IMG/VR virus record: IMGVR_UViG_3300046028_005651
Span: 1 to 36,461 of that record
Reading direction: 5' to 3' (one strand)
Length of the DNA stretch: 36,461 bases
Source: a virus
Taxonomy: Duplodnaviria; Caudoviricetes
The notes below the pieces were generated by a model that saw nothing but the letters and a program-made list of their open reading frames with translations, did not search any database and was not told where the DNA came from. Both the position numbers and the translations under genes were made by a program. Shown here one piece after another: positions 1,525-32,948 of the stretch; position 1 is the stretch's first letter, and each line of letters starts with the position of its first letter.

Positions 1525-1616
1525 AAGTAAAAGTTCGTCATAGCTTATATTTTGTGTTTTCATAGTATTTAATTTAGCAAATAAACCCACGTTGAAAAAT
1601 GTGGGTTTTTTGTTTT
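1525..1616 (+). ncRNA. Putative ~90-nt small RNA
   Basis: Bounded by a consensus promoter and an intrinsic terminator, with no + strand ORF. U-rich body carries two TCATAG motifs (1538-1543, 1560-1565). Confidence 0.5.
1583..1616 (+). terminator. Rho-independent terminator
   Basis: Stem AAACCCACGTT (1583-1593), GAAA tetraloop, AATGTGGGTTT (1598-1608), followed by TTTGTTTT. Confidence 0.75.
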
Positions 1617-1628
1617 AATTTTGAAATC

Positions 1629-4600: not shown

Positions 4601-5606
4601 AAAAATGCAAGTAATACGCGAAGCAGGAAACGCTCCATTTGCTATTAGCAGCTATGGTATGGCAAGGTATTTTAGAGAAGCCTCGGAAATAATTTTAAAT
4701 GGGGACTACGAAATAATTACAGGATTCAATAAGCAAGAACAGTCTATGTATTTGACTTGGTTTAGTAACACCTTAGCAGAGCAAAATGTGACTTATTCAG
4801 GCGCAAGTGTATCAACCACAAGTCCGTTAGTTATAGTAATCGCAACGCCTAACCCAACTTTATCAATAGGTGATAAGATAAAAGTTTATCAAAACACAAC
4901 CTCGTTCATAGCAGAAATAGGCGACATTACGGGTAATTTTTATAATCTTATTTTAATAAGCGGAACACCTAATCTTAACCCAATTACAGCAATTAGCTTA
5001 TACGAAGTTGTTTCGGCACAAGAAACTATTTCATTCCTAGAACCCGAAAGAGATAGTGTAGAGCCAGGTTGGACAACAAACCATGAAATGGAAAAAACTG
5101 TTGATGGCAAAATTGTTCCAATTGATATGTATGGCTTTATTGGAGGAGTATTTACGACTGTTTTAAACGCTGATATTTACCAACACAATGCAAATGGTAC
5201 TTACTTAAACCTATTCGGAGAAAATAAAGACTTTAAAATTACGAGCGTATTTAATTTAGAACCTGACGCAAGCAAAGTATTTTTAGCGCATGCAGTTCAT
5301 TCTAATATTACCATGGCAAAAACCACGCTCGTTATTCCTGCAAATCAAAATTATCCAGTAGGAATGAAATCAATATTAGTAGAAGGTAATTATAAGCTAC
5401 GAGAAGGTGCTTTTTACGCTGATATAAAGAAGGACGGATATTCTAAGGGTATTGCAGCCGAAAATACAGCACAATTCATTAACGGCCTTATAAACGGCAG
5501 ACCAATGAGAGGACGTGTAATAGAAGTTGAAATTTTATATCAAGGAAATGATATATTTGTATTGTTTAGTCACGAAGTAGAAATCCAATATTCACCATTA
5601 AGCTAA
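1629..5606 (+). CDS. Tail stabilisation / muzzle protein (crAss-like, P22 gp10-like)
   Basis: N-terminus 'LNTDKEERTLEQGEYRAALHARIGTSSQGNVNAVEPIQSN', plus 'FFTDGYNQPRRIN', 'FQFRARYIYENGEISSWSAWS' and 'YGIVYYDEYFRQT', resemble crAss-like muzzle proteins. Start moved from 1599 (inside the terminator stem) to 1629. Confidence 0.8.
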   Translation: MKQKGLFTRRLNTDKEERTLEQGEYRAALHARIGTSSQGNVNAVEPIQSNVLRTEGITFTGVNKCIGTYQDIKNNAIIYCIWNSNKQHRIIRYTPSTQTVEDLLPLTWNVEVLNWQYVEGVRLSQKRLWNLRIVETGDYQLMFFTDGYNQPRRINLQLKDVRGTGAYTLTEDDIAVAKKPPFEPAWTYATDTAEPSNFIRNKWFQFRARYIYENGEISSWSAWSPLTIPPQDGVDYNLINVTLYSGDITVKKVEVARREGNGVSSTSATNTELYIFATVDNITPSVIDVPFRNSEVLKPVSRTTSDINFYAVPQLAGCQEVVESNQVVYGDITEGYNNLVIEDADLPILEATYDQTTIKAFEIVFDVSARAYFIYVPPTYVPLLNQKVTIKIGATLIFSYTISTVSRGAFMTEIAATIDGKNGFTATVVGDYIETNITTSISVYSYEVDFTSINEFGSYTKTVDQTIGGGYVKIIYENAILNGMVRVNQSDFKITENVFGTITFDIGFSISTAIGGDYNMVLLDATTNTPIIYIRSTVISGISADTFSFKIDSNTIVGKTIAIAVENISTSALIIRTNSSLQIDLQVPQYLKKGAKSGATHKYGIVYYDEYFRQTGVQAVSSIYIPSPAQRTYGLPYNFTDTTDNQAGYIPQINWAIQHRPPIMAKYYKWVYNESNISNFCQFIANVKDPSVSANVGYNFIIITTQSLSLYPFLFKDITAGDVIRIILTQGDGLLGLTGTPYVESTVLSVTPTELKIDTSNGQINTQNIDGALVEVYVTNQSEFYYETRNIYTIGNAGTDQAYHNGQTQNQTADLSQDAEGTFLGTTYFYINNEVLGSGTSPNSTAFTENANIDNNFESNFWDKGRPQIETPNQKQQRIPWMLRWGGKLFQDTEINNMSSFDAGNYEILSAKYGGVIGLREIGYTMKIVQEVNYSTAYIGRREITNADGSSQLVLTDNLIGQINDSEFGFGTKYAGSIIVNDNKMYFFDTTKMQVIREAGNAPFAISSYGMARYFREASEIILNGDYEIITGFNKQEQSMYLTWFSNTLAEQNVTYSGASVSTTSPLVIVIATPNPTLSIGDKIKVYQNTTSFIAEIGDITGNFYNLILISGTPNLNPITAISLYEVVSAQETISFLEPERDSVEPGWTTNHEMEKTVDGKIVPIDMYGFIGGVFTTVLNADIYQHNANGTYLNLFGENKDFKITSVFNLEPDASKVFLAHAVHSNITMAKTTLVIPANQNYPVGMKSILVEGNYKLREGAFYADIKKDGYSKGIAAENTAQFINGLINGRPMRGRVIEVEILYQGNDIFVLFSHEVEIQYSPLS

Positions 5607-8673: not shown

Positions 8674-11600
8674 ATGCCAGAAGAAAAAGATTATTTAGGT
8701 AAGGTGTTTGATACACTAAAAGAAACTGTAGATGGTTTTGATAAAGACGAAGCAACATTCAGAAAAGCAATGTCAGATACTTCGTATGCTTCAAAAGTTC
8801 ACAAAACTTTGTTTGAAAATATAGAGGGGTTTAATAAAACACCTGAACAGTTTTACGAAGCAAGTGGAATTGTTACCGAAAAAAAAAAGCCTTTACCGAA
8901 TACTTTTCGAGATGCTGGAATTTCTTTGGCAAAGCCTTCAACGCAAGAATCAGGGTCGAGTGGTAAAACAAAAACTGTAGAAGAATTTAATGCTAAGTAT
9001 GGCACCAACTATACTGATTTAAAAACAGGCCAAACCAAAGTTGATAATGCAGAAAAAGGAGTATTAGTTCCTTTTTCTCCTATCAAGGTAAAACAACCTA
9101 GTGGTGAGAAAGACTTTATTGCGCCTAAAGTACAATTACCAGACCTTACTAAAGCACCAATGAAACGCTATGAGAAAGCGTATAATGGCATAACAGGTAG
9201 AATTGATAACAATACTAAGGAGTTTGATAAAGTTACAGCAGAAGCAGAAAAACAAGGCAAAGAACTAGAAGGTACAGTTAACAAGTATAATAACGAATTA
9301 AAACAAGCAAGCACAGTTATCCAAAACGAGCTTAAAGCTAAGTACGAAGGGCTTTTAAAGGCAGGAAGTATAAGTGCCGAAGATGCTAATTTAAAACTTC
9401 AAGAAGAGTACAAAAAAGGTTACAGCATAGCTGAAAAACAAATAACAAGCAAATACAAACCTAGTTTAGATTCTTACACCTCGTTACTTGATAAAAGAAA
9501 AACATTAGGCAATTCAATCAAAGGCGATGTCGAAAGAGCAAAGTTATTATCTAATTCAGTAGGCATTATTGAAAGAAATGTTAATGCTCAAAATGTATCT
9601 GAATACAGTAACCTAGAGAACTTAACAGTTTCGGGCTTATCAATGTTAGGTTCTGCAATGTCGGGTTCGTTACCATTTTTTCTAAGATTTACCAATAACA
9701 ATTTAGCCGAGTATGCTGCTAAAAACAATATGCCTGAATTGGTTAAAGTTGCATTTGACAATCAAAAAAGCATAGACAAGTCAGAGTTGCTTCAAAAAAT
9801 GGAAGCGTACGCCAAGGAACAAGCTCAAAAAGGAAGTTACTACTCTAATAAGATTACAGAAAAAGAAGGCACGCTAGTTGATAATTTTAGCCAAGGCAAT
9901 TACGCCCAAGCAGGTAAAGTAGCAAGTTTAAGGTTTTTAGAAAGCATACCAATGATGGGTGCAGCAATAGGCATGACAGCACTTACAGGAGGTACAGCAA
10001 GCGCAATTATTCCGGGTGGGTTTATGTTTGGTTCACAAAACTATTACGGTGAATACGCTGATAGACCCGACATGAGCGAAACTGACAAACTAAATGCTTC
10101 GTTTGTAAAAGGTTCGTTAGAAATGATAACCGAACTAAGTGTTATGCCTTTATTATCTCCACTAAAAGGTTTAATCAAAACAGGTGGTAAAGAAGCAGTA
10201 AGAGAAGCAGTTGAAAAAACCTTATTCAGTTCAATGAAAGAAGGCTATGGTAAATTAGTTCCTTATTTTGGTTGGGTTCAAGAGGGTTTAAGTGAGTATG
10301 CAAACGAAGTAGGAAGCACTATTACTGATAAAATTTTAGACCCTAAATTCCAAGACAAAGATTGGGGACAAGTTATAAAAGAAGCTAACGTAAGAGGTTT
10401 AGAAGCATTTGGGCCAGGTGCATTTGGTGGAGTAACATTAACACTGCCCGTAGCAATTAATAACACCATTAACAAGTACCAAAACAAGAAAATGGCTAGG
10501 GAGTTTGCTTCGGAACTTGAAAAAATAGAAGCAGATATTCAAAACCCTAACTTAACAGAAGCTCAAAAAGACATTCTTATTGCTCGTAAACAAGAAATAC
10601 ACGGTAAATTAAACGAAGTATTTGATGCTGATAAACAAGAAACAGCAGGAGCAACAACAGAACAAGTTTCAGCCCTAGACGATATTAACGACCAACAAGA
10701 CGAAGTTGCAATTGCTTTACAAGACGAAACTATAAGCGATGAAAGTAAAGTAGCATTTGAAGAAAAAGCCAAGGAACTAGCCGAACAAGAAAAAGCAGTT
10801 TTAGAAGAAATAAAAGCAAACGAAATAGTAAATGAAGAAGAACCTAATACAGCCGATAATGGACTTAGTAATGACGTTGTTGAGCCTATTGTAGAACCAA
10901 GCAGCATTTCTAGTAGTGAAGTATCGGCACCTAATAACGTAGAACCAATAAGACAATTAGGTACAGGCGCAAATGTTTATTTTGAAACAGAAAAATATAG
11001 AGTAAACGATTCTAAGGACGGTGTTATTTTAAATATCCAAAATCAATCAGACGAAGTTCCTATAGCTAATATTAAATTTGATAATGCAAATGACGCAGTA
11101 GTAATAGCCAAGGAAATTGAAAGTAAATTTCCTAAGGGAGTTCCTGATGCAATTTTGGTTGAAAAATACGTTGACCAACTAAAAAAAGAATTACTTTCAC
11201 CTACCACAGAAAAACCTAAAGGTGAAACAGCCGAAACCGTTACTACAAAAGAAACTAAGACCGATGAAAGTCCAGTAAATGAGATAAAAAACGGGACAAA
11301 TGGGCTAGAATTATTTAACGAGGCAAAAACCTTTGGCATAAATAAAAGCCCCGACATTACTGACATAGTAATGAATACTGACGTTTTATTTACTACAAAT
11401 AATAAGGGGGAAAAATTACAAGAAGGAGAAGGCTCTTTGCAAGAATTGAGGGATATAATAAAAGAAAATCCTAAAAATAAAGTAAGGCTTGTGGAGGTAA
11501 GAAAAGATGGCGACATTACCGCTGTAACCATAAGAGTAGGTGGGCAAGAAACCATATATAAAGTTGACACAAAAGCAGTAGAAGAACTATTAGCTAAGGA

Positions 11601-14600
11601 ACAAACACCTAATAATAAGGAACAGGCCAAAACACCTACAAACATTAAAGAAAACCCTAATAAGGAAGAAAAAGTAGAAAATAAGGAAGAGCCAAAAAAG
11701 AAAAAACGTGTTCGTAAAAACAAGGTTATTTCAAAAATACTAGACGAGGTTACTGTTGACCCTATTGATAAAGTATTGCAATATTTTATTGGAGGGGGGA
11801 AAATAAACGGAGATAGAAAAAATACCGAAAATGCTATTCAGAAAATATTTGGCAAAAAAGGTGGTGCAAAAGATTTGGATAAAACTTACAAAAGCTATTT
11901 CAATCTAACTAGAAATAATGCTCCAACTTTAAGCGAATTGGCACATTCTTTATGGGAAGAAAATAGAGACAACAGCGACTATACAAGCCAAGACTACGAA
12001 GAGGCTATAATTGAAGTATTATCGACACACAATGGAACTAATTCCATGAAAGAAGCCTTTAATAATAAATTTCAAATAGATGTTTCTGCGGAAGAGATTG
12101 AAAGAGAAGCAGCAGACCAAGCATATATAGACGAGCAAGAGCAAAGGCTAAATGAGCAACAACAAGAACAGTTTAATGAAGAATTGATAACCCAAGAAGC
12201 TATTGACGAACCTTTGGTATTTGAACTTAACGACCAAGAAATTGAACAAGTAGAAGAACTTGGAATTACAGAAGAAACAGAAGAATTAACAGCAGAACAA
12301 TTTGAAGCCTTAGAAGCCTTATTGTTCGGAGAACCACAACCAATAAATAACAACGAAAATGGAAACGAAAAAGAAATTAAGCAAGGAGAAGATAATGTCA
12401 CTCCTAAACAAAGCGAGAGCAAAGAATCTAGCAGACAAGATGCTGAAAGAAAATCAGCCCTCGAAGCAAAAGTAAAAGAAGCTAAAAATGCTTACCAAGC
12501 AGCACAAAGCAAACTAACCAAGGCTAAACAAGCAGCCGAGAAAGCAGGACAAGAACAACAAGCAAATATATTTGGTGGCAAACCTGCCGATGCTTTATTG
12601 TTTGGGACTGATTTACGATCGTTAAATGTTAAAGTTAAAGAAAGACAAGCCGAAGCAGATAAAGCTAAAGAGAACTTAGATAAAGCGCAACTAGCATTGG
12701 ATAGTTTCGTTCCTAGCAATCAAGTTCAGTTGGAAGTAGAAGCACCTTCGGAATCTACAATAGTAAAAGACCCTATTTTAAAGCGTTTAAATAAAGCATT
12801 TTTAAAAATAGGAGCTGAAATACTTGACAACGCAGAACAGTTAGCAGCTAAAGCAAAAGAACTAGCTAGTGGTGGTGCTAAGATTGATTTTAGTATGGAA
12901 CAAGCTATAATCCAATCTGAAAATGTTAAACTAGAATACAATAGCAATGGTAAGCATTTAGCACCTAACGGTAAGCCAAGTAATTTAACAGAACAACAAG
13001 CCAAGATAGTTAGAACACCTGCATTTAAGAAATGGTTTGGAGATTGGGAGAATGACCCTAAAAATGCAAGTAAAATTGTTGATAAAAATGGTGAGCCTAT
13101 GGTTGTTTACCATGGAACAGGAAGCACTATTACTGAATTTGATAAAAACACTAGAGGTTCAAATACAGGTGCTAGTTCAGCAGAAAAAGGTTTTTTTGTA
13201 TCTGATACGAAAAGTATTGCAGAATCTTACAGAAGAGCAGTTCAGGTAGAAAACCCTAACCTAGAAGGGCTTAAAACTATTTTATCTGAATTATCGGTAG
13301 AGGAGTTAAAGCAATTTGGTAAAGGTGTAATGGGTTACGATATAAGAACATTTGAGAAAGGTGATTACACTAAAGAAGAAATAGAATACGAGTTATTTAG
13401 AGATATTGAAAACGATAGTGAAGGCTATTATGCAGACAGAAGAAAACTTATTGAAAAAGCCTCAAAATACTTAAAAGAAAACAAAATAGAGTTTTCTCCA
13501 TACCAAAATACAGGAATGCTTATAGAAGGGTTTTTAAATATTAGAAATCCTAAAAAAATTGATGCGGAAAGTCAAACTGCTTTTGATATAGACTTACCAG
13601 GTATTATAGACAATTCTGTATCTGAAAACAAAGACGGTGTTTGGGTTGAAAATGTTTACGATTCAGTTTCGTTTACCGAAAAAGGAACTGATACAGAAGA
13701 AGGTTCTATTATGGTTTTCTTCGAGCCTAATCAAATTAAATTAGCTGACGGAACAAATACTACCTTTGATAGTAAAGTAAACGATTTTAGGTACAACATT
13801 ACTTTACCTAACGGTAGCCAAAAACAAGTAAAAGCTATTGACGTAGATGTAGTAAACGGATTTTATTCACCATTAGAAAAAGTAATTAGCGAAGCTAAAC
13901 AAGATAAAATGCCTGCTAAACAATGGGCTGAAAAATTTGCTAAAGGAGAAGAAGCTAAATGGACTGGATTACAAGATTGGTTAGCACAACAACAAGGTTC
14001 TGTTTCTAAAACTGATATTCAAAACTTCCTTAAAGAAAATAGGATTGAAGTTGTTGAAGTGGTGAAGAGTGATAATGCCGATTCTTATAGCATGGATAGG
14101 TACGAAGAGTTTCCGCAAGAAGTTAAAAACATTGCGGAAGAATTTGGCGAAGACGAAGATGAATTTACTCGGCAATTAGAAGCAATAGGATATCAAGTTA
14201 ATAGAGATATGGACGGAAGTATTCTTTCTTTTAATAAAAAAGGAGAAGAGAACAAGTTTGACAAAGCCACGAAATTCTCTCAATACCAATTAGAAGGAGA
14301 AAAAGAAAACTATAAAGAGGTGTTGGTTACGATGCCTATTGCTAAATCAAAACAAGAATATGTAGTTGAACAAGATTACAGAATACCAAATACATTTTAC
14401 GCAGTTAATCAAAAAACAGGTGTAAAATTAAAGTTTGGAAGTTATGAATTAGCAAAATCACAAGCAGAACGATTAAGTAAAGAAGCTCAACCCGACTTTG
14501 ATAAACAATTCAAATCTTCACACTTTGACGAACCAAACATACTTGTTCACCTTAGAATGAATACAAGAGTAGATTCAGAAGGTAATAAAGTATTATTCCT

Positions 14601-17600
14601 TGAAGAAATACAAAGTGATTGGGGCCAACAAGGTAAAAAGTTAGGTTTTGCGACAACCAATGCAGAAAAAAGAAAAAAAGAATTACTTGCAAAAGATGAA
14701 TTAACAAAATCTGAATTAAATGAGCTTGATTCACTAAACAAAGAGTTAGGTTTTGATACTAAAACACCTGCAGCACCATTCGTAACAGACACAAACGCTT
14801 GGACTAAACTTGGCTTAAAAGTAGCTTTAAAAGAAGCAGTAAAGCAAGGAGCAACTAAAATAGCATGGACTACTGGTGAGCAACAAAACGAACGTTACGA
14901 CTTAAGTAAAAGTATTGAAGTTGTTTACGCAACAAAAGGTGATGAAAAAGGAAAATTAGGAGAATATTTTATTGAAGCAACACCAAAAGATGGTGGACCC
15001 CCTGCAATTGCAGAGTGGGTTAAGGAAGAAAAACTTGAAAGTATAATCGGGAAAGACCTTGCAGAAAAAATAATTAGCAATAACGGAGGTGAGTTTAGGG
15101 GTGATAACCTTAAAGTAGGTGGCAAAGGCATGAAAGGCTTTTACGGCTCACCAACAGAAGGTAGTTTAGGTATAGTAGGAAATGTAGCGAAGAGCTTATT
15201 CAAGCAAGAACCTAAAACAATTGGTATTGTAGTGAACTCTAATGCAAAAGTCAAAATGCCTAACGAAGAAGCTACTATTGAAAAAGTAAATAGCAGAAAC
15301 GGTTGGTTAGTGTTTAATCCGTTTGAAGGAGAAGACTATAGCTTTAACACAGAGAAAGAGGCTGACAAATACATTTCGGAACTCAAACTTAAAGAAAACG
15401 AAAAAAGTGTTTCAACCCAATATTCAATTGACATAACACCTGAATTAGCAGCAACAGTAGAACAAGGACAACCTTTATTCCACTTAAACGACAAAGGAGA
15501 AATACTTGGCTTTACTTATAACGGTAAAATATACCTTAATGGTGAAAAAATAACAGCTAAAACCACAATGGAAGAAGCTGGGCATATTTGGATTAATTGG
15601 GCCAAAGAAAACCGTTCAGATTTATACCAACAAGGCTTAGAGAAGGTACAAGGAAGCAAATATCTAATTGAAGTAAACAATAACCCTAGTTATCAAAAAG
15701 AAGCCCTTAAACAAGGAGAAAAAGGCAGTGATGCTTACAATGCTTATATGCAAGAAGAAGCACTAGCAAAAGCAATAGCTGATAATGGTGCCAAGTTTAT
15801 TTCAGAAACTAGAAAAGCAAGTTTTAGAGAGTGGGTAAATGCTATGTGGAAAGAAGTAGCAAAAGCCTTCGGAATACAAAACTTAAACCCTAGCGAAGTA
15901 AAAGCATTAACATTAGAAGAATTTGCTAGAATGGCTGCTGCAGATGTGTTTAGTAGTAAAGAAACACCTGTTCAAGAACAAGCAGTTGAAAAAGTTGAAG
16001 ATGCAAAATTAACAGATTTAGAAAACGAAGTTTGGGAGAACGTACTATCAAAAGGACAAGGCTTAGCTTTGCCTTCTAGTAAAGTGGCAAACTCGGACTA
16101 TCCTAATTTAATAGGTAACGATTTGGTTTATATTGATAGTTGGGGAAGCGGTAAAACAGTATCTTTAAAACTTACTCCTAAAGGTGAATTAGTAGCGTTA
16201 AAAGAACAACTTAAAAAAGCTAAACTAACTGATAGTAAAAGAAAAATTCAAGAGCGCATTGACGAATTAGAAGGTAACGAGCCAAAAGTACCTAAAGGAC
16301 CTAGCGATGGACTTGGAAGTACAACAGCAGCTAATACAAATAACATTACTCCAACTCAAAACGCAGAACGAGTAAGCATGAAGTTTCATTTAGAGCTTAA
16401 AAAACTAATTGAAAGTATTGGAGTGCCAATAGCAGAAAGAAACTTATCTAAACGCTTCCTAGGTATCTTTAAACATAGAGGTATGAATATTCGTGTTCAG
16501 AGTTTATTTGGTGTAGCTACTGCAGCACACGAAACAGCACACTGGGTAAGTAAAAAGTTTGGTATTGGAGAGGCTTTAAGAGAAAAATCAGCAGTAGTAG
16601 CAGCTAATCCAGATGCACAACTAAATAAAGATATTAGAAAAGCCTTGACTGATATTTACACAGAGTTTTATCCTAATGCTAAAAAAGAACATAGCCTTTA
16701 TTTAAGAGTTGAAGAAGGTATTGCAGTTTTAATGGAGCATTATTTAACCGACCCAACTGATATAACAAATCGTTATGGAATTTTAGTAGATAATTTTATT
16801 GCACCAACAGGAAAATACTATCACCCTAAATTCACTGAATTACTAGACAAGTTAAATAAGTTCCTTGCTGAATATTCGGCATTGTCGCCTAACGAAAAAA
16901 TAGGATCAAGAATAGTTAGTGGAGAAGAAGTAACTAAAAAGAACGAAGGTTTTACGCCAAAGCAAGCAGTAATTCGCGGACTTGTTAACGCAGCAGAACC
17001 ATTAAGAAGAGCTGATAACATTGCAGATGCAGGTTTAACAGAAGAATCTACAGAAGTAGCTTATATCAGGTGGTTAAGCAGGGCAGGTATTATTGCTCCT
17101 TGGATTACAGGGGAAACACACCCAATTACGTTAGATAGAAATGGTAATTGGAAAGAAGTTGGGGCTAGTGTAAAAGACTACTTAGAACTTATCAAAGGCA
17201 GAGAAGCGGAATTTAGCCAATACCTAGTAGCCAGAAGGAACCTTGGCGATGTTAACTATCTTACTGAAATGGAAAATGAGTTAGCAGAAATACTAGCTAA
17301 TATTGAAAATGAAGAGGATTTAACCAAAGAGGAAGTTGAAGAAATAAATGAACTTTCGGCTCGTATTGAGAAGCAAAAACAAATTATTAAAAACGATAAT
17401 TTTGATATTCAACAAGTAACGGCAACAGTTAGAATGTTTGAAGATAAGTTTAAAGCACCTGTAGCTATTTACGATAAATTAAATAATGCTGCAGTAGATT
17501 TTGCTCAAAAGTCAGGATTGATTAGTAGCGAAACAGCCGAGGCTTACAAGGCCAATACGACCTATACTTCGTTCAAAAGACAAATAATGGACGATATTGC

Positions 17601-19668
17601 TAGTAATGTATTAGCACCAGGGACTAGCTCGCAATCTAAAGTAAGCGCATTCAAGGAAAGAAAAGGTAGTGACTTAGCAATTATTGATCCTGTTTATTCT
17701 CAAATCCAATTCATAACAGAAACATTGAATAAAGGTATGCAGAATATGATTTGGCAAAAACTAGCAGCACTTGGAAATAACAACGTAGAATTAGCTAGAA
17801 GATTTGAGAAAGTAGAAACAATAAGAGTAGTTGATCCAATAAGCGGTAAAATAACATACCCTCAAATGGGTAAACCTGGGCTTATAATGGTTAAGACTAA
17901 TGGTAAGCCAAGTTTTTACTTAGCAGCACCTGAATATGTAGCACTAGCAGAAACTTTAACTCCAAAAGAGTTAGAAACAATGGCCTATATTTTAACTAAG
18001 TCAGCAGGTATATTTAGTAGGCTTACAACTTCGGCAAATCCTTTATTCCCTCTTGTAAATATCCCAATAGATACAATGTCGGCATGGATGAATACTAAAA
18101 CAGGTTTTATTCCAGGTTGGAGCCAAATGAGAGCAATACCTGAAATGGCTAGTTACGCTAAAGATAAAGCATTGTTATCTGTAAAAAACTTAGCTAACAC
18201 AGCAATTGATTTCCTACATAACATGATTATCATTGGAGATTGGTTTAAAGGCATTAAAAATATACCTATTAAAAACCTATCGTTAGAAGAGCAAAATCTG
18301 TTTGCAAAATACCTAGCACTAGGAGGAAGCACACAAACACTTTCGTCTTACTTAGATATGTCGCCAGAGGAAATGATTAAAGCGATAACAGAAAAAAGTT
18401 TGGCTAAAAAAGTTGCACAGCATATTGACGATTTTACATTAGGAATACTTGAAATGCCAAGTAACGCTTCTGAATACATGACTAGATTCGCAGAATTTAA
18501 AAGAGCAAAAGACCAAGGCTATTCAGATGACGTAGCAATGTATATGGCAGCTCATGTGTCGGTTCCTTTTATACAAAGTGGTACTTATGGTGGACAAGTA
18601 GGTAAAACAACCGTAAAAGCCGTTCCTTACTTCCATGCAGGTATTCAAGTTATATCTAAGTTTGCTCAAACAGCTAAAAATAATCCAACGAGAACAGCAA
18701 CTATTGGAGCAGCATTGATAGCTATTAAGATAAGTCAAACACTTTTAACCATGGCACTATCTGACGATGATGATAAAAGAATGTTAGCAGAGCAAGAACC
18801 AAGTGAATTAGGTAAATACATTTATGTTCCTAACAAGTTGTTTGGAGGTAAAGGTTTTACTAGAATAAGATTTGGTAATGAGTTTGGAACCATTTCGGCA
18901 CCAATTGAAATGATGATATTGCAAAATAAAGGCTTGGCTAAATACAATTACAAAGACTATTTAGACGCTACTACAACTGCTATACCACAACAGTTTAATA
19001 TATTTAAACCTATTGAGGCTTTATGGGCCTATACGCCACAAATAGTAAGGCCATCTTTAGAAGTAGGTTTTAATGTTAGGACTTATCCAAACGTAAGACC
19101 AATCGTTCCTTATGGTGTTAGCTTTAAGTCGCCAATGAATCAGTATAATCAATATACTACAGAAACATCAAAATACCTTGGAAAATTAGCGGGTGTTTCT
19201 CCAATGAAAATTGATTACTTTATTAAAGCACAATTTGGTAAGGTTCCGGATATGCTACTTAGAAAAACAGAAGAAATAGTAGTTGGTAAAGAAAATAAAT
19301 CAAAAAGTCAAATATTTTTACAAGAGGAGCAATATGTATTAGCAGGAAAAAATTACACTGATTTTTATGAAAATAATAAATATTGGGATGAACTTTATAA
19401 CGATACAAAATCAATCAGAAAAAGTGGAGTTGATTTAAATAAAGAACAACTTGAAGTTATTGAAAACCATAAAATATTTAACAATACAGAATCTATTATT
19501 AAAAAAATGAGAGATAAAGTAAATGAAAATATTGAACTTCCAGAATACTTAAAGCAATCAGCGTTCGAGTTACTTATTGATTTAAATAATTCAGACAAAC
19601 CTTATACTTTTGTAGATAAATATACAAAACTAAAAAACAATTATTTAAAAGCATTCCCAAATAACTAA
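8674..19668 (+). CDS. Giant polyvalent virion (ejection) protein with ART-like, GNAT-like, two zincin-like and LPD38-like regions
   Basis: 3664 aa. Gly/Ala-rich hydrophobic segments (~9630-10460). 'APNGKPSNL..FKKWFGDW..PMVVYHGT..GFFVS..FEPNQIK' (~12950-13740, ART-PolyVal-like). 'FYSPLEK..SHFDEPN..LEEIQSDW..GMKGFY' (~13860-15200). EEAGH (15571-15585) and HETAH (16528-16542) zincin-like motifs. C-terminal 'TRFAEFKRA..SPMKIDYFIK' region is LPD38-like. Confidence 0.75.
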   Translation: MPEEKDYLGKVFDTLKETVDGFDKDEATFRKAMSDTSYASKVHKTLFENIEGFNKTPEQFYEASGIVTEKKKPLPNTFRDAGISLAKPSTQESGSSGKTKTVEEFNAKYGTNYTDLKTGQTKVDNAEKGVLVPFSPIKVKQPSGEKDFIAPKVQLPDLTKAPMKRYEKAYNGITGRIDNNTKEFDKVTAEAEKQGKELEGTVNKYNNELKQASTVIQNELKAKYEGLLKAGSISAEDANLKLQEEYKKGYSIAEKQITSKYKPSLDSYTSLLDKRKTLGNSIKGDVERAKLLSNSVGIIERNVNAQNVSEYSNLENLTVSGLSMLGSAMSGSLPFFLRFTNNNLAEYAAKNNMPELVKVAFDNQKSIDKSELLQKMEAYAKEQAQKGSYYSNKITEKEGTLVDNFSQGNYAQAGKVASLRFLESIPMMGAAIGMTALTGGTASAIIPGGFMFGSQNYYGEYADRPDMSETDKLNASFVKGSLEMITELSVMPLLSPLKGLIKTGGKEAVREAVEKTLFSSMKEGYGKLVPYFGWVQEGLSEYANEVGSTITDKILDPKFQDKDWGQVIKEANVRGLEAFGPGAFGGVTLTLPVAINNTINKYQNKKMAREFASELEKIEADIQNPNLTEAQKDILIARKQEIHGKLNEVFDADKQETAGATTEQVSALDDINDQQDEVAIALQDETISDESKVAFEEKAKELAEQEKAVLEEIKANEIVNEEEPNTADNGLSNDVVEPIVEPSSISSSEVSAPNNVEPIRQLGTGANVYFETEKYRVNDSKDGVILNIQNQSDEVPIANIKFDNANDAVVIAKEIESKFPKGVPDAILVEKYVDQLKKELLSPTTEKPKGETAETVTTKETKTDESPVNEIKNGTNGLELFNEAKTFGINKSPDITDIVMNTDVLFTTNNKGEKLQEGEGSLQELRDIIKENPKNKVRLVEVRKDGDITAVTIRVGGQETIYKVDTKAVEELLAKEQTPNNKEQAKTPTNIKENPNKEEKVENKEEPKKKKRVRKNKVISKILDEVTVDPIDKVLQYFIGGGKINGDRKNTENAIQKIFGKKGGAKDLDKTYKSYFNLTRNNAPTLSELAHSLWEENRDNSDYTSQDYEEAIIEVLSTHNGTNSMKEAFNNKFQIDVSAEEIEREAADQAYIDEQEQRLNEQQQEQFNEELITQEAIDEPLVFELNDQEIEQVEELGITEETEELTAEQFEALEALLFGEPQPINNNENGNEKEIKQGEDNVTPKQSESKESSRQDAERKSALEAKVKEAKNAYQAAQSKLTKAKQAAEKAGQEQQANIFGGKPADALLFGTDLRSLNVKVKERQAEADKAKENLDKAQLALDSFVPSNQVQLEVEAPSESTIVKDPILKRLNKAFLKIGAEILDNAEQLAAKAKELASGGAKIDFSMEQAIIQSENVKLEYNSNGKHLAPNGKPSNLTEQQAKIVRTPAFKKWFGDWENDPKNASKIVDKNGEPMVVYHGTGSTITEFDKNTRGSNTGASSAEKGFFVSDTKSIAESYRRAVQVENPNLEGLKTILSELSVEELKQFGKGVMGYDIRTFEKGDYTKEEIEYELFRDIENDSEGYYADRRKLIEKASKYLKENKIEFSPYQNTGMLIEGFLNIRNPKKIDAESQTAFDIDLPGIIDNSVSENKDGVWVENVYDSVSFTEKGTDTEEGSIMVFFEPNQIKLADGTNTTFDSKVNDFRYNITLPNGSQKQVKAIDVDVVNGFYSPLEKVISEAKQDKMPAKQWAEKFAKGEEAKWTGLQDWLAQQQGSVSKTDIQNFLKENRIEVVEVVKSDNADSYSMDRYEEFPQEVKNIAEEFGEDEDEFTRQLEAIGYQVNRDMDGSILSFNKKGEENKFDKATKFSQYQLEGEKENYKEVLVTMPIAKSKQEYVVEQDYRIPNTFYAVNQKTGVKLKFGSYELAKSQAERLSKEAQPDFDKQFKSSHFDEPNILVHLRMNTRVDSEGNKVLFLEEIQSDWGQQGKKLGFATTNAEKRKKELLAKDELTKSELNELDSLNKELGFDTKTPAAPFVTDTNAWTKLGLKVALKEAVKQGATKIAWTTGEQQNERYDLSKSIEVVYATKGDEKGKLGEYFIEATPKDGGPPAIAEWVKEEKLESIIGKDLAEKIISNNGGEFRGDNLKVGGKGMKGFYGSPTEGSLGIVGNVAKSLFKQEPKTIGIVVNSNAKVKMPNEEATIEKVNSRNGWLVFNPFEGEDYSFNTEKEADKYISELKLKENEKSVSTQYSIDITPELAATVEQGQPLFHLNDKGEILGFTYNGKIYLNGEKITAKTTMEEAGHIWINWAKENRSDLYQQGLEKVQGSKYLIEVNNNPSYQKEALKQGEKGSDAYNAYMQEEALAKAIADNGAKFISETRKASFREWVNAMWKEVAKAFGIQNLNPSEVKALTLEEFARMAAADVFSSKETPVQEQAVEKVEDAKLTDLENEVWENVLSKGQGLALPSSKVANSDYPNLIGNDLVYIDSWGSGKTVSLKLTPKGELVALKEQLKKAKLTDSKRKIQERIDELEGNEPKVPKGPSDGLGSTTAANTNNITPTQNAERVSMKFHLELKKLIESIGVPIAERNLSKRFLGIFKHRGMNIRVQSLFGVATAAHETAHWVSKKFGIGEALREKSAVVAANPDAQLNKDIRKALTDIYTEFYPNAKKEHSLYLRVEEGIAVLMEHYLTDPTDITNRYGILVDNFIAPTGKYYHPKFTELLDKLNKFLAEYSALSPNEKIGSRIVSGEEVTKKNEGFTPKQAVIRGLVNAAEPLRRADNIADAGLTEESTEVAYIRWLSRAGIIAPWITGETHPITLDRNGNWKEVGASVKDYLELIKGREAEFSQYLVARRNLGDVNYLTEMENELAEILANIENEEDLTKEEVEEINELSARIEKQKQIIKNDNFDIQQVTATVRMFEDKFKAPVAIYDKLNNAAVDFAQKSGLISSETAEAYKANTTYTSFKRQIMDDIASNVLAPGTSSQSKVSAFKERKGSDLAIIDPVYSQIQFITETLNKGMQNMIWQKLAALGNNNVELARRFEKVETIRVVDPISGKITYPQMGKPGLIMVKTNGKPSFYLAAPEYVALAETLTPKELETMAYILTKSAGIFSRLTTSANPLFPLVNIPIDTMSAWMNTKTGFIPGWSQMRAIPEMASYAKDKALLSVKNLANTAIDFLHNMIIIGDWFKGIKNIPIKNLSLEEQNLFAKYLALGGSTQTLSSYLDMSPEEMIKAITEKSLAKKVAQHIDDFTLGILEMPSNASEYMTRFAEFKRAKDQGYSDDVAMYMAAHVSVPFIQSGTYGGQVGKTTVKAVPYFHAGIQVISKFAQTAKNNPTRTATIGAALIAIKISQTLLTMALSDDDDKRMLAEQEPSELGKYIYVPNKLFGGKGFTRIRFGNEFGTISAPIEMMILQNKGLAKYNYKDYLDATTTAIPQQFNIFKPIEALWAYTPQIVRPSLEVGFNVRTYPNVRPIVPYGVSFKSPMNQYNQYTTETSKYLGKLAGVSPMKIDYFIKAQFGKVPDMLLRKTEEIVVGKENKSKSQIFLQEEQYVLAGKNYTDFYENNKYWDELYNDTKSIRKSGVDLNKEQLEVIENHKIFNNTESIIKKMRDKVNENIELPEYLKQSAFELLIDLNNSDKPYTFVDKYTKLKNNYLKAFPNN
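8879..8966 (+). other. Candidate -1 frameshift / slippage site (A10G containing A_AAA_AAG) with 25-codon trans-frame extension
   Basis: In-frame GAA AAA AAA AAG (8878-8889). The -1 frame reads AFTEYFSRCWNFFGKAFNARIRVEW, stop TAA 8964-8966. Confidence 0.4.
12359..12475 (+). CDS. Possible nested out-of-frame small basic protein, 38 aa
   Basis: METKKKLSKEKIMSLLNKARAKNLADKMLKENQPSKQK in the +1 frame of the giant gene, preceded by an A-rich leader (CAATAAATAACAACGAAA-ATG). Confidence 0.35.
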   Translation: METKKKLSKEKIMSLLNKARAKNLADKMLKENQPSKQK

Positions 19669-19669
19669 C

Positions 19670-20203
19670 ATGAAAAAACTAACATACCCTTTAAAGGAAG
19701 AGGCATTAAGCCTATTAAAAGAGCTTTTAGAGCTTGAATTTGACCAAAGCTATACTTGGACATACATAGCAATGTGTATGCAAAATTACGGCTATTTTAG
19801 AGCAGCTAATTATTTTAGTGACGAAGCTAAAGAAGAACGTAAACACGCAAGCATGCACATTGAGTATTTACTTGGTAGAGGTTACGAAGCTAAACTACCG
19901 AAGATTGCACCACCTGAATTAGAACTAGAAGACCTAAAAGGTGCGATTAAATACGCTTTTGAGCTAGAGAGTGAAGTAACTGACAAGTATGCTAAAATAA
20001 CTCGTAAAATGTTAGATATTGACCTTTTAACCTATAACTTCTTACTGCAGTTCTTAACGTTTCAACAAGATGCATTAGCTAAGTACTCGGACTTATACAG
20101 TCAAATTGATAGCTGTAAAGAAGTTGAAGACCAAAAAGAAATGGAGAAGTGGATATTTGGTCACGAAGCAAGTGAAGAGCCTGTAAAGTCTATTGTTCAA
20201 TAA
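19670..20203 (+). CDS. Ferritin-like protein
   Basis: 177 aa four-helix pattern with ferroxidase-like residues: 'LEFDQSYTWTYIA', 'EAKEERKHASM', 'AFELESEVT', 'NFLLQFLTFQQD'. Confidence 0.85.
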   Translation: MKKLTYPLKEEALSLLKELLELEFDQSYTWTYIAMCMQNYGYFRAANYFSDEAKEERKHASMHIEYLLGRGYEAKLPKIAPPELELEDLKGAIKYAFELESEVTDKYAKITRKMLDIDLLTYNFLLQFLTFQQDALAKYSDLYSQIDSCKEVEDQKEMEKWIFGHEASEEPVKSIVQ

Positions 20204-21257: not shown

Positions 21258-21833
21258 ATGGCAGAAACAAGCAAAGCATTACCTCGTTTAAAAGCAAACG
21301 GATTTTACGATAAACATATCGTAGGTAAAAAAGTAATAGATGTAGGAGTTGGAAGACTAGATACATTTGACGGAGCAGACCCAATATGCGAATGGGCTGA
21401 AATGCACGATAAAGATATTTGCGATGCAACTACAATGGAAATGTATGAAAATGAGCAATTTGACACAGTTTTTGCGTCCCATATTGCCGAACATCTAATT
21501 GACCCAATTACAGCAATTAAGAATTGGCTTCGGATATGCAAAAAAGGAGGCGTAGTATTTATTTCTGTACCTCATAGAGATTTGTATGAACGTAAAAAGA
21601 CCTTACCTAGTAAATGGAACGAAGACCATAAGTATTTTTATTTGCCAAGAATAAGTGAGCCGCCTTGTACCTTTAGTTTAAAAGATATTGTTGTTGCGGC
21701 AATAATAAATATGAAAGGAAAATGTTTTTCAAATGATTACGACATGGAAGTTATCGACACCTCAACCAACCACGATAAACCCGAAGAACACGCTAACGGA
21801 GAATTTTCAATTGAATGTATAATTTATAAATAA
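21258..21833 (+). CDS. Class I SAM-dependent methyltransferase (Methyltransf_11-like)
   Basis: 'VIDVGVG' motif I, 'FDTVFASHIAEHL' and 'WLRICKKGGVVFISVP'. Confidence 0.85.
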   Translation: MAETSKALPRLKANGFYDKHIVGKKVIDVGVGRLDTFDGADPICEWAEMHDKDICDATTMEMYENEQFDTVFASHIAEHLIDPITAIKNWLRICKKGGVVFISVPHRDLYERKKTLPSKWNEDHKYFYLPRISEPPCTFSLKDIVVAAIINMKGKCFSNDYDMEVIDTSTNHDKPEEHANGEFSIECIIYK

Positions 21834-26443: not shown

Positions 26444-26633
26444 ATTAAGAGATAAACTTATCGAACAAATAGATAAGATTGAAAAAGGAGAAATGCCTTT
26501 AGAAAAAGCAAGAGAAATATCAAGAACAAGTCAAGCAATACTTGAAAGTGTTAGGCTAGAAATTGAATACTCGAAACTTATTAATAGTAAAGTAAAAATA
26601 GATTTTTTGGAGGTAGAAAATGAAACACTTTAA
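26430..26633 (+). CDS. Small helical protein
   Basis: 67 aa; 'AREISRTSQAILESVRLEIEYSK'; overlaps both neighbours. Confidence 0.65.
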   Translation: MKINKLRDKLIEQIDKIEKGEMPLEKAREISRTSQAILESVRLEIEYSKLINSKVKIDFLEVENETL

Positions 26634-27183
26634 ACTAATCGGCTTATTATTAGCCATAAACCTTATTTGCTTTTTTATACCTCGTGAATACTATCAGTAT
26701 TTAACGATACAAAGCAATGTAACTGATGCACTTCAAACTATTGGGCAATGTTTTACTTACATATTTATGTCTGAAAACATATTCCACTTGGTACTAAACG
26801 GACTATTTTTAGTTTCGTTAGCTAGACTTATAGTATTTACTATTCCAGATATTCTATTTGTAGCCTACTACATACTTTGGGGAGTTTTAGTTGGAATAAT
26901 TAACTACATAATAGCTTCGCATGACACCTACCATTATTTAATAGGCAACAGTGGTGTTTTATATGCGTTTATAGGCTACATAACTGTATTCTCACCCAAT
27001 ATAGAAGTAAAACTATTTGGAAGCTATAAAATGAGTTTCTTAGGCTTCGGAGTGGTAATATTTTCGTTATCTATAATCAGCATAGTATTTGGCAATAACG
27101 TTTATGGAGATATAGCCCACATAAGCGGATTTATTTTAGGGCTTATAACAGCTAAAATTTATAGTAGAATACAATTATGGTAA
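26620..27183 (+). CDS. Rhomboid-family intramembrane serine protease
   Basis: Multiple TM helices; 'FHLVLN' (HxxxN), catalytic 'GNSG' (26944-26955) and 'AHISGFILG' (His at 27118-27120). Confidence 0.85.
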   Translation: MKHFKLIGLLLAINLICFFIPREYYQYLTIQSNVTDALQTIGQCFTYIFMSENIFHLVLNGLFLVSLARLIVFTIPDILFVAYYILWGVLVGIINYIIASHDTYHYLIGNSGVLYAFIGYITVFSPNIEVKLFGSYKMSFLGFGVVIFSLSIISIVFGNNVYGDIAHISGFILGLITAKIYSRIQLW

Positions 27184-30386: not shown

Positions 30387-30710
30387 ATGAGTAGAAACAA
30401 CAAACTTAGAGAAATGGCTGAAAAGCTACCAGAAGCACCAAACTTAGTAAACGGTAAACCTCAATACGATAGTAGTGGCAAACTAATAATGGCCAACCAC
30501 TTTCGTAACTTAAAAGAAATTGAGAGAACGGTAGAGAAACTTGGATTTAGCAATAAAAGCCCTCAAATGCTTAGTGCTTGGAACAAATACACACAAGCAG
30601 TAATTAAGTACAACAACCGTAAAATAATGCGTGAGAGAGCAACTTATTTTAGTGTGTGGGTATTCCTTATGGTTAGTATTGTTGCAGTTATTATTAAATA
30701 TTGGAGGTAA
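30387..30710 (+). CDS. Hypothetical protein with C-terminal TM helix
   Basis: 107 aa ending FSVWVFLMVSIVAVIIKYWR. Confidence 0.65.
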   Translation: MSRNNKLREMAEKLPEAPNLVNGKPQYDSSGKLIMANHFRNLKEIERTVEKLGFSNKSPQMLSAWNKYTQAVIKYNNRKIMRERATYFSVWVFLMVSIVAVIIKYWR

Positions 30711-30711
30711 G

Positions 30712-32670
30712 ATGAATGTTCTCTCATTATTTGACGGTATGAGCTGCCTACAGATTGCAATGAAGGAGTTGGGTTTAAAAGTAGATAATTACTTTGCTAG
30801 TGAAATTGATAAACACGCTATTGCACAAACTCAACTCAACTTTCCTAATACTATACAACTAGGAAGTGTAACAAGAATAAACACAAAAACGATTTTTTTA
30901 TCGGAGGTATATTCTTATATTTGTAATAAATATTTTAAAAATGACATACACAATTTACAAAGCATCATTCCCGAATGGGAAATGCTACATAGGATTAACG
31001 AAGCGCAAACTTTCGCAGCGTATTATGGAACACAAGTCGAGAATGAAAATAAAAAAATACCAACAAATTCCAATTTATCAATTAATGACAGAATTTGGTT
31101 TTGGAAATGTCCAATGGGAGGCGATAACGGAGTTTACGACATTGCCAGAAGCGGAAGCAGAGGAAAAATTGCAAATAAAATTGATGTCGGGGATTTGTGT
31201 AAATATTCTTTCTGGTGGAATGGGGACAGACAACACGAATCCAGAGTTAAGGAGGAGGGTTTCTTTGGGGCAGATAGGGTTGAAGAAAACAGAAGCAACA
31301 AAACAGAAGCTAAGGGAAATCGCAATCAAGCAATTTTCGAGAGTAGAGGCAAGAGAACACCAAAGAATGAAAGCAAATCAGCAGTTCCAGAATCCAATAA
31401 TGAAACAAAACCATATAAATGCAATGGCGAAAAAAGACTGGATATTAATAGCGGAGAAGAAGAAAGAAACGGAAGAGAAAAAAAGAGTGGCGAGGTTTGT
31501 AAAAATGAGGGAGATTTACAAACCAACAATGAAGTTAACAGAGTTGGCGGAATTGACAGGGTTTTCTTATCAATTTATAAGGAAGTACAAGTCACAATTA
31601 TTGAGTGTGAATGGGGAGTAATTATTTCAAAAGGAATCTTCCAATTTACGGGCGGTGGATCGCCATGCACAAATTTCAGTTTTGCTGGTAAGCGCAAAGG
31701 AATGAGTACTAAAAGTGAAACAGAAATACTAACCCTAGAACATTACTTACAGCTAAAAAGTGAAGGATTTGAGTTTGAAGGCCAATCGTATTTGTTTTGG
31801 GAATATATGAGAATACTAACCGACATAAGAAAAGTAAATCCTAGTGTAAAGTTTTTGTTGGAAAACGTAGAAATGGGCGAAAAGTGGGAAAAGATTTTGA
31901 GCCGAGCAATTGGTGTAAATGGTATTCATATTAATTCTGCCTTGGTTTCAGCACAAAACCGAAAGCGTATTTATTGGACTAATATTGGTATGCAGCCACA
32001 AGGTTTATTTGGCGATTTGCAAAGCATAATTACTCAACCACGCAACAAAGGCATTTTACTGAAAGATATTTTGGAAACTGAAGTGGATGAAAAGTATTTT
32101 TTGAGTGAAAAGGCAGTTGAAAATATTATAAAACATAAAGAAAATCAAACTTTAAAAGGATTTGGATTTGGTGCAAAGTTTCATGAAGAAAATGAAAAGA
32201 TGGGTGCTTTAAAAATTGGCGGCAAAGGTGTTGATGATTTAGTTGTTCATAACTTAATGCCTAGATCGAGTAAAAGCGGAAAAGGTGGTACTGGTCCATT
32301 AAGTAGAAACGATGGAAAAACTTATTGTTTAGACACAGGCAATACCAACGCAATTGAAGTAATTAACAAAGACGACTTGGTTATCCAGTTAAATCCTAGC
32401 AAAGAAAGTGGTGGGCAGCAACCATATCAACAAAACAGAGTTTACAGTGAAGACGGTATAATGCCTGCTTTAAACGCTCAATTAGGTGGTAGAAACAATA
32501 TCCAAACCACTTCGCAAATAAGAAGACTTACGCCAACAGAATGTGCTAAACTCCAAACTATACCCGAATGGTACACATGGAACTGTTCGGACACACAACA
32601 ATATCGTATGCTTGGCAATGGCTGGACAATATCAGTAATAACTCACATATTAAACTATTTAAAAAATTAA
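30712..32670 (+). CDS. DNA (cytosine-5) methyltransferase with a ~245-aa in-frame insertion
   Basis: Motif I 'MNVLSLFDGMS', II 'ASEID', IV 'GGSPC', VI 'LLENV', VIII 'AQNRKRIYW', IX 'RRLTPTECAKLQ', X 'MLGNGW'. True start taken as ATG 30712, 1 nt after the upstream stop. Confidence 0.9.
   Translation: MNVLSLFDGMSCLQIAMKELGLKVDNYFASEIDKHAIAQTQLNFPNTIQLGSVTRINTKTIFLSEVYSYICNKYFKNDIHNLQSIIPEWEMLHRINEAQTFAAYYGTQVENENKKIPTNSNLSINDRIWFWKCPMGGDNGVYDIARSGSRGKIANKIDVGDLCKYSFWWNGDRQHESRVKEEGFFGADRVEENRSNKTEAKGNRNQAIFESRGKRTPKNESKSAVPESNNETKPYKCNGEKRLDINSGEEERNGREKKSGEVCKNEGDLQTNNEVNRVGGIDRVFLSIYKEVQVTIIECEWGVIISKGIFQFTGGGSPCTNFSFAGKRKGMSTKSETEILTLEHYLQLKSEGFEFEGQSYLFWEYMRILTDIRKVNPSVKFLLENVEMGEKWEKILSRAIGVNGIHINSALVSAQNRKRIYWTNIGMQPQGLFGDLQSIITQPRNKGILLKDILETEVDEKYFLSEKAVENIIKHKENQTLKGFGFGAKFHEENEKMGALKIGGKGVDDLVVHNLMPRSSKSGKGGTGPLSRNDGKTYCLDTGNTNAIEVINKDDLVIQLNPSKESGGQQPYQQNRVYSEDGIMPALNAQLGGRNNIQTTSQIRRLTPTECAKLQTIPEWYTWNCSDTQQYRMLGNGWTISVITHILNYLKN
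30916..30923 (+). promoter_or_regulatory. Internal Bacteroidota -7 promoter element for the nested endonuclease
   Basis: TATATTTG, 17 nt upstream of ATG 30941, followed by an AT-rich leader (TAATAAATATTTTAAAA). Confidence 0.6.
30941..31621 (+). mobile_element. GIY-YIG homing endonuclease gene (NUMOD3-like motif, C-terminal HTH) nested in the +1 frame of the methyltransferase
   Basis: 'TIY...CYIGLT...RIMEH', 'AEAEE', 'VNILSGG'; NUMOD3-like 'GLKKTEATKQKLRE'; HTH-like 'LTELAELTGFSYQFIRKY'. Confidence 0.85.
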
Positions 32671-32672
32671 AA

Positions 32673-32948
32673 ATGGCACAACTACAAATACAATCTAACT
32701 ACTTTTTAGTAGCAGCAGATGACGAAGACGAAGAAAAAGTACAGGGTGGAATTATCTTACCCGGTAAAAAGAAAAGAGAACGACTTGGAACTATAATAGA
32801 AGTTGGAAACGAACAAGAAGACGAGAGAGTAGTTATAGGCGCACGAGTAATGTATAACATATATGGTGGGACTAAACTAACTTTTAATAATAAAACACAC
32901 TACTTGCTTAAAATTACAGACCTATATGGGTTTGTTGAGGAGAATTAA
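32673..32948 (+). CDS. groES: GroES/Cpn10-like co-chaperonin
   Basis: 'EEKVQGGIILPG...GTIIEVG...VVIGARVMYNIYGGTKL...YLLKITDLYG'. Start at ATG 32673 after the methyltransferase stop. Confidence 0.85.
   Translation: MAQLQIQSNYFLVAADDEDEEKVQGGIILPGKKKRERLGTIIEVGNEQEDERVVIGARVMYNIYGGTKLTFNNKTHYLLKITDLYGFVEEN

Follow-up and report, generated by a model that had tools for sequence, protein, structure and literature searches.

A likely GIY-YIG homing endonuclease gene that overlaps a phage C5 DNA methyltransferase gene in the +1 frame, with the methyltransferase frame open across the insert

The window, which is the whole analysed stretch of 36,461 bases of a virus record, carries a C5 cytosine DNA methyltransferase gene (30712..32670, plus strand) that encodes 652 aa, an insert included, in one unbroken frame. 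The insert is probably a mobile GIY-YIG gene that is overprinted in the +1 frame of its host and persists unspliced by read-through of the methyltransferase frame, so that translation would run straight through it. Read-through as a tolerated loop had been proposed in a first-pass annotation of this DNA and is still the best reading. Two points qualify that proposal: the strategy is not a different one (PMC11855218), and the loop is not simply passive, as the host strand before motif IV appears to have been replaced.

The methyltransferase gene and its second open frame

The methyltransferase starts with the ATG at 30712 and matched PF00145 in the Pfam scan (E 2.7e-28). The top Foldseek matches to the 652-aa protein were DNMT3-type C5 methyltransferases, with both halves aligned, and the C5 methyltransferase motifs I, IV (PC), VI (ENV), VIII and IX-X were all found in the host protein. 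Upstream of the element, the host part reaches from motif I FxG to QLGSV (30712..30870, plus strand), and 55 of 61 N-terminal host residues were identical to the insertion-free protein P0008. The downstream host part (31660..32670, plus strand) comprises the catalytic SPC, ENV, QxRxR, the target-recognition region and motifs IX-X, and showed 82% identity to P0008 over 351 columns.

The methyltransferase gene was missing in close relatives. Contigs of runs X11 and X20 (two of the eight runs) joined 30713 cleanly to 32673, and a contig of run X14 (one of the eight) had 1,296 other letters in place of the gene. The stretch 30713-32673 is a variable gene slot, and the methyltransferase is accessory and dispensable.

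The sequence GGAGGT, which resembles a Shine-Dalgarno sequence, directly precedes the start of the methyltransferase (30702-30711) and that of a rhomboid protease gene (26608-26619), while most other starts in the window lack it. The Pfam scan assigned the rhomboid protease to 26620-27183, a ferritin-like protein to 19670-20203 and a second, SAM-dependent methyltransferase to 21258-21833. A polyvalent protein of 3,664 aa with ART-PolyVal and LPD38 domains is encoded at 8674-19668, and 1599-5606 gave a sub-threshold match to the crAss muzzle protein. The cultured phages with the closest methyltransferase homologues were Bacteroides and Phocaeicola phages. Together with the muzzle-like match and the polyvalent protein, these homologues make a host from the Bacteroidota likely for the window phage.

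The first-pass coordinates were reproduced exactly: QLGSVT ends at 30873, GGSPC begins at 31654, and an ORF of 226 aa lies between them in the +1 frame (30941..31621, plus strand), leaving flanks of 67 and 29 nt within the interval that had been annotated as the insert. Its sizes needed slight correction, as the loop of about 245 aa amounts to a net 246 codons and the native interval, given as about 15 aa, has a host equivalent of 13 aa. In PHROGs, the 226-aa ORF matched profiles for homing endonuclease (E 8e-15) and for the GIY-YIG motif (E 1.7e-4). The window's protein itself had no Pfam match; PF01541 was above the cut-off in two of the six scanned relatives (L002 and L003). The catalytic residues were compared with reference to the residue numbering of I-TevI. 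Residues Y6, Y16, G18, R27, H31, E75 and N88 were conserved, so that the Tyr, Arg, Glu and Asn that a GIY-YIG nuclease is expected to use in catalysis (residue types as described in PMC2988022) are present. The assignment to the GIY-YIG family therefore stood, and the NUMOD3 and helix-turn-helix domains named along with it were not confirmed: in the DNA-binding region of the window protein and its relatives, Pfam gave no NUMOD3 match and one weak HTH_7 match (L009, E 0.057). The 226-aa protein is likely a homing endonuclease. The left junction was crossed by short contigs of runs X7 and X10, possibly from the same lake campaign, that had 0-1 differences and so speak against an assembly artefact.

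The DNA of eight metagenome loci was compared with the window, giving nine loci with nucleotide identities of 63-78%. The nuclease ORF was intact in all nine. As had been claimed, the methyltransferase frame of the window had no stop across the insert, and the proposed avoidance of a third-position T before AA, AG or GA was strongly supported (0 of 50 codons in the insert versus 36 of 97 elsewhere, p 2.6e-8). Each of the nine loci had 40-58 such at-risk codons, and not a single one ended in T. Codon shuffling, suggested earlier as a check, showed that the open frame is not expected by chance. Synonymous resampling with the codon usage of the window gave a mean of 18.3 stops and no stop-free sequence in 20,000 runs, and permuting the ORF's own codons left the host frame stop-free in only 13 of 20,000 runs. 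In twelve other coding stretches, such stops numbered 8-14 per 100 codons and no open run exceeded 51 codons. Frequent stops in the methyltransferase frame of relatives would have spoken against read-through; instead, both frames were open at all nine loci, and the third frame had 28-41 stops across the insert. We concluded that the open host frame is not due to chance and that stops are avoided.

Distribution of the insert, its conserved ends and the mini alleles

An insert at the same site was present in 28 of 127 proteins (the 120 best homologues and seven locus translations). A search with a profile of the insert matched 103 protein clusters, all annotated as PF00145. The proposed survey of C5 methyltransferases with an insert at this site thereby extended to 105 protein clusters, after five proteins without a motif match had been left out. 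The spacings measured in these 105 inserts were about 261 (n=22), about 254 (n=82) and 160 (n=1), and the spacing in empty alleles was 15. The PC motif was present in all 105 carriers and ENV in 100 of them. All 81 IMG/VR loci that were measured had empty alleles, in a set that was retrieved with an empty-allele query. DNA of the element was not found in searches of viral contigs, genome contigs and GenBank phages.

The host part of the window was sister to the empty P0008, with 95% identity over the core motifs, and for 15 of the 28 carriers the nearest host was an empty allele. The carrier label changed 15 times on a quick tree, with at least four changes forced by starred branches, and was still clustered (0 of 500 shuffles gave as few as 15 changes). 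The identity of the inserts was uncorrelated with that of their hosts (Spearman 0.015). P0223 and P0221 have near-identical hosts, one with and one without the element, and a contig of run X20 gave piecewise matches to the element (30876-31627), with its flanks unmatched. By the quick tree, the identities and the allele pairs, the distribution over host alleles at this one site is disjunct. The element is likely mobile, and the scattered distribution suggests homing, with label counts that do not separate gain from loss.

Two proteins of the family deserve separate mention. The second halves of insert and host are identical in P0017 and P0223 and their first halves differ, which indicates recombination within the element. 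P0123 (296 aa) consists of methyltransferase and insert in the host frame and then switches into the nuclease frame; decay of the copy or an error of assembly may explain this.

It had been suggested that the hydrophobic ends of the read-through product fold together. AlphaFold models of the full protein and of the insert alone agreed with this, giving a pLDDT of about 62-89 for the ends and below 50 for the middle; the alignments were shallow (59 and 14 rows), and the covariation used may derive from the other reading frame. The N-terminal half of the predicted clamp (30880..31026, plus strand; host-frame residues 57-105) is modelled as a strand, three helices and a strand with a pLDDT of 69-89 by block, has 16 of 53 positions common to two subfamilies and is kept in the mini alleles described below. 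The predicted disordered loop follows (31027..31566, plus strand; residues 106-285), with a pLDDT mostly below 50 and, at residues 176-280, none of 105 positions common to the two subfamilies. The C-terminal half (31555..31632, plus strand; residues 282-307) is modelled as a helix and a beta hairpin, the latter with a pLDDT of 87. Structural matches of the clamp spanned both ends but were weak (Z ≤4.0). Foldseek gave the fold no match with E below 0.001 in the viral library, and TM stayed below 0.5 in the Atlas, an absence that is uninformative. In the predictions, the two ends of the insert come together as a small alpha/beta clamp, with the disordered loop closed off between them.

An exhaustive search found 28 representatives of the family, of which 19 had a measurable site. 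Five of these (P0213, P0233, P0240, P0242 and P0243; protein sequence only) had spacings of 124-208. All five have lost the middle in frame, by deletions in the loop part after about residue 175, and have kept the N-terminal part, the C-terminal hairpin, PC and ENV; they come from different subfamilies. Among the 105 inserts, a Met-Ile pair occurs in P0213 only. It forces a stop on the nuclease frame, and P0213 nonetheless keeps 26 of the 31 shared residues. The mini alleles are the strongest evidence that the ends of the insert matter.

The pattern of silent changes also pointed to extra constraint on the ends. Of the columns with four-fold sites of the nuclease, 13 of 20 were invariant within codons 1-100 and none of 12 within codons 101-200; in this second region, identity equalled the saturated expectation. 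Several of the fixed codons are rare ones. Alternatives silent in the nuclease that change the host frame were seen at 19 of 71 opportunities in the first region, whereas the middle had 36 of 52 (p 3.6e-6), and changes silent in both frames were seen at 3 of 3 in the first region. Given the recombination between P0017 and P0223, part of the conservation of the N-terminal half could be recent shared ancestry. The pN/pS of the host parts was 0.09-0.16 in the four of nine carriers with an ungapped core, a value that is uninformative since most divergence may predate the insertion.

These data bear on the strongest rival, an inactive or irrelevant methyltransferase whose frame is kept open only for the passage of ribosomes, avoiding polarity on downstream genes or on the nuclease transcript. 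The absence of the gene from close relatives weakens the need for an active methyltransferase, the insert directly precedes the catalytic motif, and in the host frame conservative amino-acid changes were not significantly favored over radical ones (class test, p 0.13). However, the catalytic motifs are intact in nearly all 105 carriers, and mini alleles of different subfamilies keep both ends and frame, whereas polarity would need an open frame only. We consider this explanation unlikely.

Splicing signals, anatomy of the site and a proposed mechanism

The first-pass annotation had seen no intein ends and no room for a group I intron, and both statements withstood the wider comparison. Alignments of the 105 inserts and their ends had no Cys/Ser1, no His-Asn-Cys and no +1 Cys/Ser/Thr, and 14 members gave no Pfam intein match. 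The check for a Hint fold used a low-confidence alpha/beta model with a best Z of 4.0 and found no Hint entry among the weak matches listed. Comparison of 99 empty with 105 carrier proteins revealed systematic differences in the flanks of the insert: at a position that is mostly Y in empty alleles, for example, 96% of carriers have K, and at one that is mostly P, 98% have G. Such remodelled flanks fit adaptation to a retained insert and not rejoining as for exons or exteins.

These results also make it quite improbable, slightly more so than an inactive enzyme, that the ends are an unrecognised non-Hint autoprocessing domain, an intein analogue that excises or cleaves the insert at the protein level. 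The layout is indeed intein-like, with an N-part of about 100 aa, a C-part of about 25 aa, a dispensable middle and minis, and inteins with out-of-frame nucleases exist. Against this stand the lack of the intein residues and Pfam matches, the lack of a Hint structure among the weak matches to the model, and the divergence of the flanks from the empty allele, by which a ligated product would be non-native.

It is less probable still that the insert is removed or skipped in the RNA, whether through a self-splicing RNA of unknown type or through ribosomal bypass. This reading could draw on the conservation of nucleotides close to the 5' end. A hairpin that may cover the nuclease start, of the kind that sequesters the start in I-TevI, was weak (z below -3 in two of nine sequences), showed no convincing covariation and was rejected as a candidate. 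Rfam covariance models, an earlier suggestion for refuting read-through, gave one chance hit outside the insert. Conserved antiparallel helices of at least seven pairs were not in excess (11 versus 10 in the parallel control), and two-sided changes occurred in one of 23 predicted pairs. Only 11-46 nt of the insert are non-coding in the nuclease frame, and removal would render the avoidance of stops needless. In the sequencing runs compared with the window, no RNA contig reached across the insert; the runs of RNA with small shares left it uncovered. By any sequence feature tested, the element is neither intein nor intron.

That the clamp was domesticated and lends the methyltransferase a new role, for example in oligomerisation or the binding of a partner, and is kept for its benefit and not for irremovability, is the least likely of these alternatives: the ends persist after loss of the nuclease, but empty alleles dominate (81 of 81 IMG/VR loci, by empty query) and adjoin carriers on the tree.

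A matrix of the empty site was built from 64 distinct sequences of 81 loci that cover the host codons P-K-I-D-L-L-I-G-G. Its best match in the whole window, on both strands, was 30882..30908 on the plus strand (10.8 bits, next 1.3; 18 of 27 nt), a frameshifted copy of the empty target site that reads HKNDFFIGG in the third frame and lies 13 nt nearer to QLG than in empty alleles. The copy was the top match in eight of nine loci and the second in L007. It is a candidate operator or half homing site; alternatively, it may be a vestigial duplication of the target kept by selection on the host frame. Foreign DNA would begin near 30909, with the old host codons frameshifted. At the other end, the in-frame stretch 31633..31659 (plus strand), a rebuilt strand and Gly-Gly before the catalytic motif, scored -31 bits on the same matrix (11 of 27 nt), and empty alleles averaged +37. 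This strand is likely derived from the element.

An internal promoter of the Bacteroidota type, with the consensus taken from PMC6847099, was predicted at 30893..30923 (plus strand), with the -7 element TATATTTG at 30916-30923. The element was present in all nine loci, 14-17 nt before the ATG. The -33 position, which the target copy overlaps, is TTTT in the window and the canonical TTTG in two of nine loci. The earlier claim of a nuclease promoter thus rests on conservation in 9/9 loci and not on the single match, because TAnnTTTG occurs 52 times in the window. This conserved -7 element could drive the nuclease. A sigma-70 scan found nine sites versus 8.4 expected.

From these features a mechanism can be proposed. 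Foreign DNA would have entered at the Gly-Gly/Ser-Pro-Cys codons, and a loss of 13 nt would have pushed the upstream host codons out of frame. The 3' end of the element would provide the replacement strand before the catalytic motif, and therefore simple excision could not restore the native gene and decay would end in the mini form. The clamp of the two ends would close off the disordered loop and lead back into the pre-catalytic strand. The nuclease, expressed from its own internal promoter, would cut insertion-free alleles and so spread, and may bind the retained target copy over this promoter and repress itself in the manner of I-TevI. Taken together, the element may be a splicing-free counterpart of an intein, in which a newly evolved clamp, overprinted on the nuclease and its promoter, substitutes for a core strand of the host enzyme, becomes unremovable, recycles host codons as an operator and decays to nuclease-free minis. 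We put this full version forward tentatively, as somewhat short of an even chance.

Other insertions were noted in related methyltransferases. L010 has a different one between motifs IX and X (L010:2394-3095) with an open host frame and an out-of-frame HNH ORF (L010:2447-3094; PF13392, E 9e-10) behind a TATATTTG element; relatives of this HNH element are found in P0003 and P0084, and P0003 has both elements. Further long in-frame insertions lie between motifs IX and X in P0103, P0137, P0183 and P0189 and after motif VIII in P0014, for which no DNA was found. All five start with residues compatible with a -7 element and are probably more hidden nucleases.

Relation to known systems

The strategy of splice-free read-through had been published before (PMC11855218), and the window is not a first in this respect. 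The published cases are the ShiLan domain and the Pacc40 gp60 insertion, where HNH endonucleases lie out of frame within DNA methylases of actinophages (Arsenault et al. 2025, PMC11855218; Gosselin et al. 2023, PMC9957025). As in ShiLan and Pacc40, an ORF for a nuclease lies in a shifted frame of a phage methylase, the host frame is free of stops, intron and intein signals are lacking and the distribution is patchy or disjunct, so that the element has the features of a ShiLan-type hidden endonuclease. Read-through as a loop was also proposed there, and the start of the insert resembles the sequence after the site. ShiLan is, however, an HNH nuclease with zinc fingers, whereas a GIY-YIG nuclease is found here in the +1 frame of a C5 enzyme from a Bacteroidota-type phage. 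Leaderless initiation was proposed for ShiLan, in contrast to the candidate internal promoter of the window, and the target copy is out of frame only here. Codon-level avoidance of stops, predicted folded ends and mini alleles were found here and are not in the main text of PMC11855218. Neither a GIY-YIG version nor mini alleles or a folded clamp turned up in a literature search that covered few subscription journals. The mini alleles, the predicted clamp and the frameshifted target copy add a testable mechanism to the published strategy.

Inteins with out-of-frame homing endonucleases have been described (bioRxiv 10.1101/2025.01.02.630785), among them a cyanobacterial dnaX intein (bioRxiv 10.64898/2026.09.14.751524). 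They share with the present element a host frame that crosses the nuclease and the coexistence of empty, full and mini alleles. They differ by their splicing domains, whereas Hint motifs are lacking here and the flanks are remodelled.

I-TevI of the T4 td intron represses itself via a look-alike of its homing site over its promoter (PMC2988022). The GIY-YIG catalytic residues, a promoter within the element and a homing-site look-alike that overlaps this promoter are common to both. I-TevI lies in a group I intron, its binding and repression have been shown whereas they are only inferred here, and its start-sequestering hairpin has a weakly supported counterpart in our loci. The gene-splitting endonucleases mobE in Aeh1 nrdA and mobA in T4 gene 60/39 (PMC2988022) likewise sit, unspliced, in a critical part of their host genes. 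There the host is broken up into separate polypeptides, whereas the host of the present element remains one ORF.

In PMC11855218, read-through itself, tolerance by the host enzyme and expression of the hidden nuclease were left open. Empty, full and mini alleles at one site, in some cases in near-identical hosts, make these questions testable, and empty homologues exist in cultured Bacteroides phages. Gene callers miss such nucleases in more than 100 methyltransferase clusters that are annotated as plain long proteins. If the clamp reading is true, a folded domain arose by overprinting and outlived its selfish gene. Should the comparison to a splicing-free intein hold as well, it would document a route by which the second frame of a selfish gene becomes a new structural protein domain.
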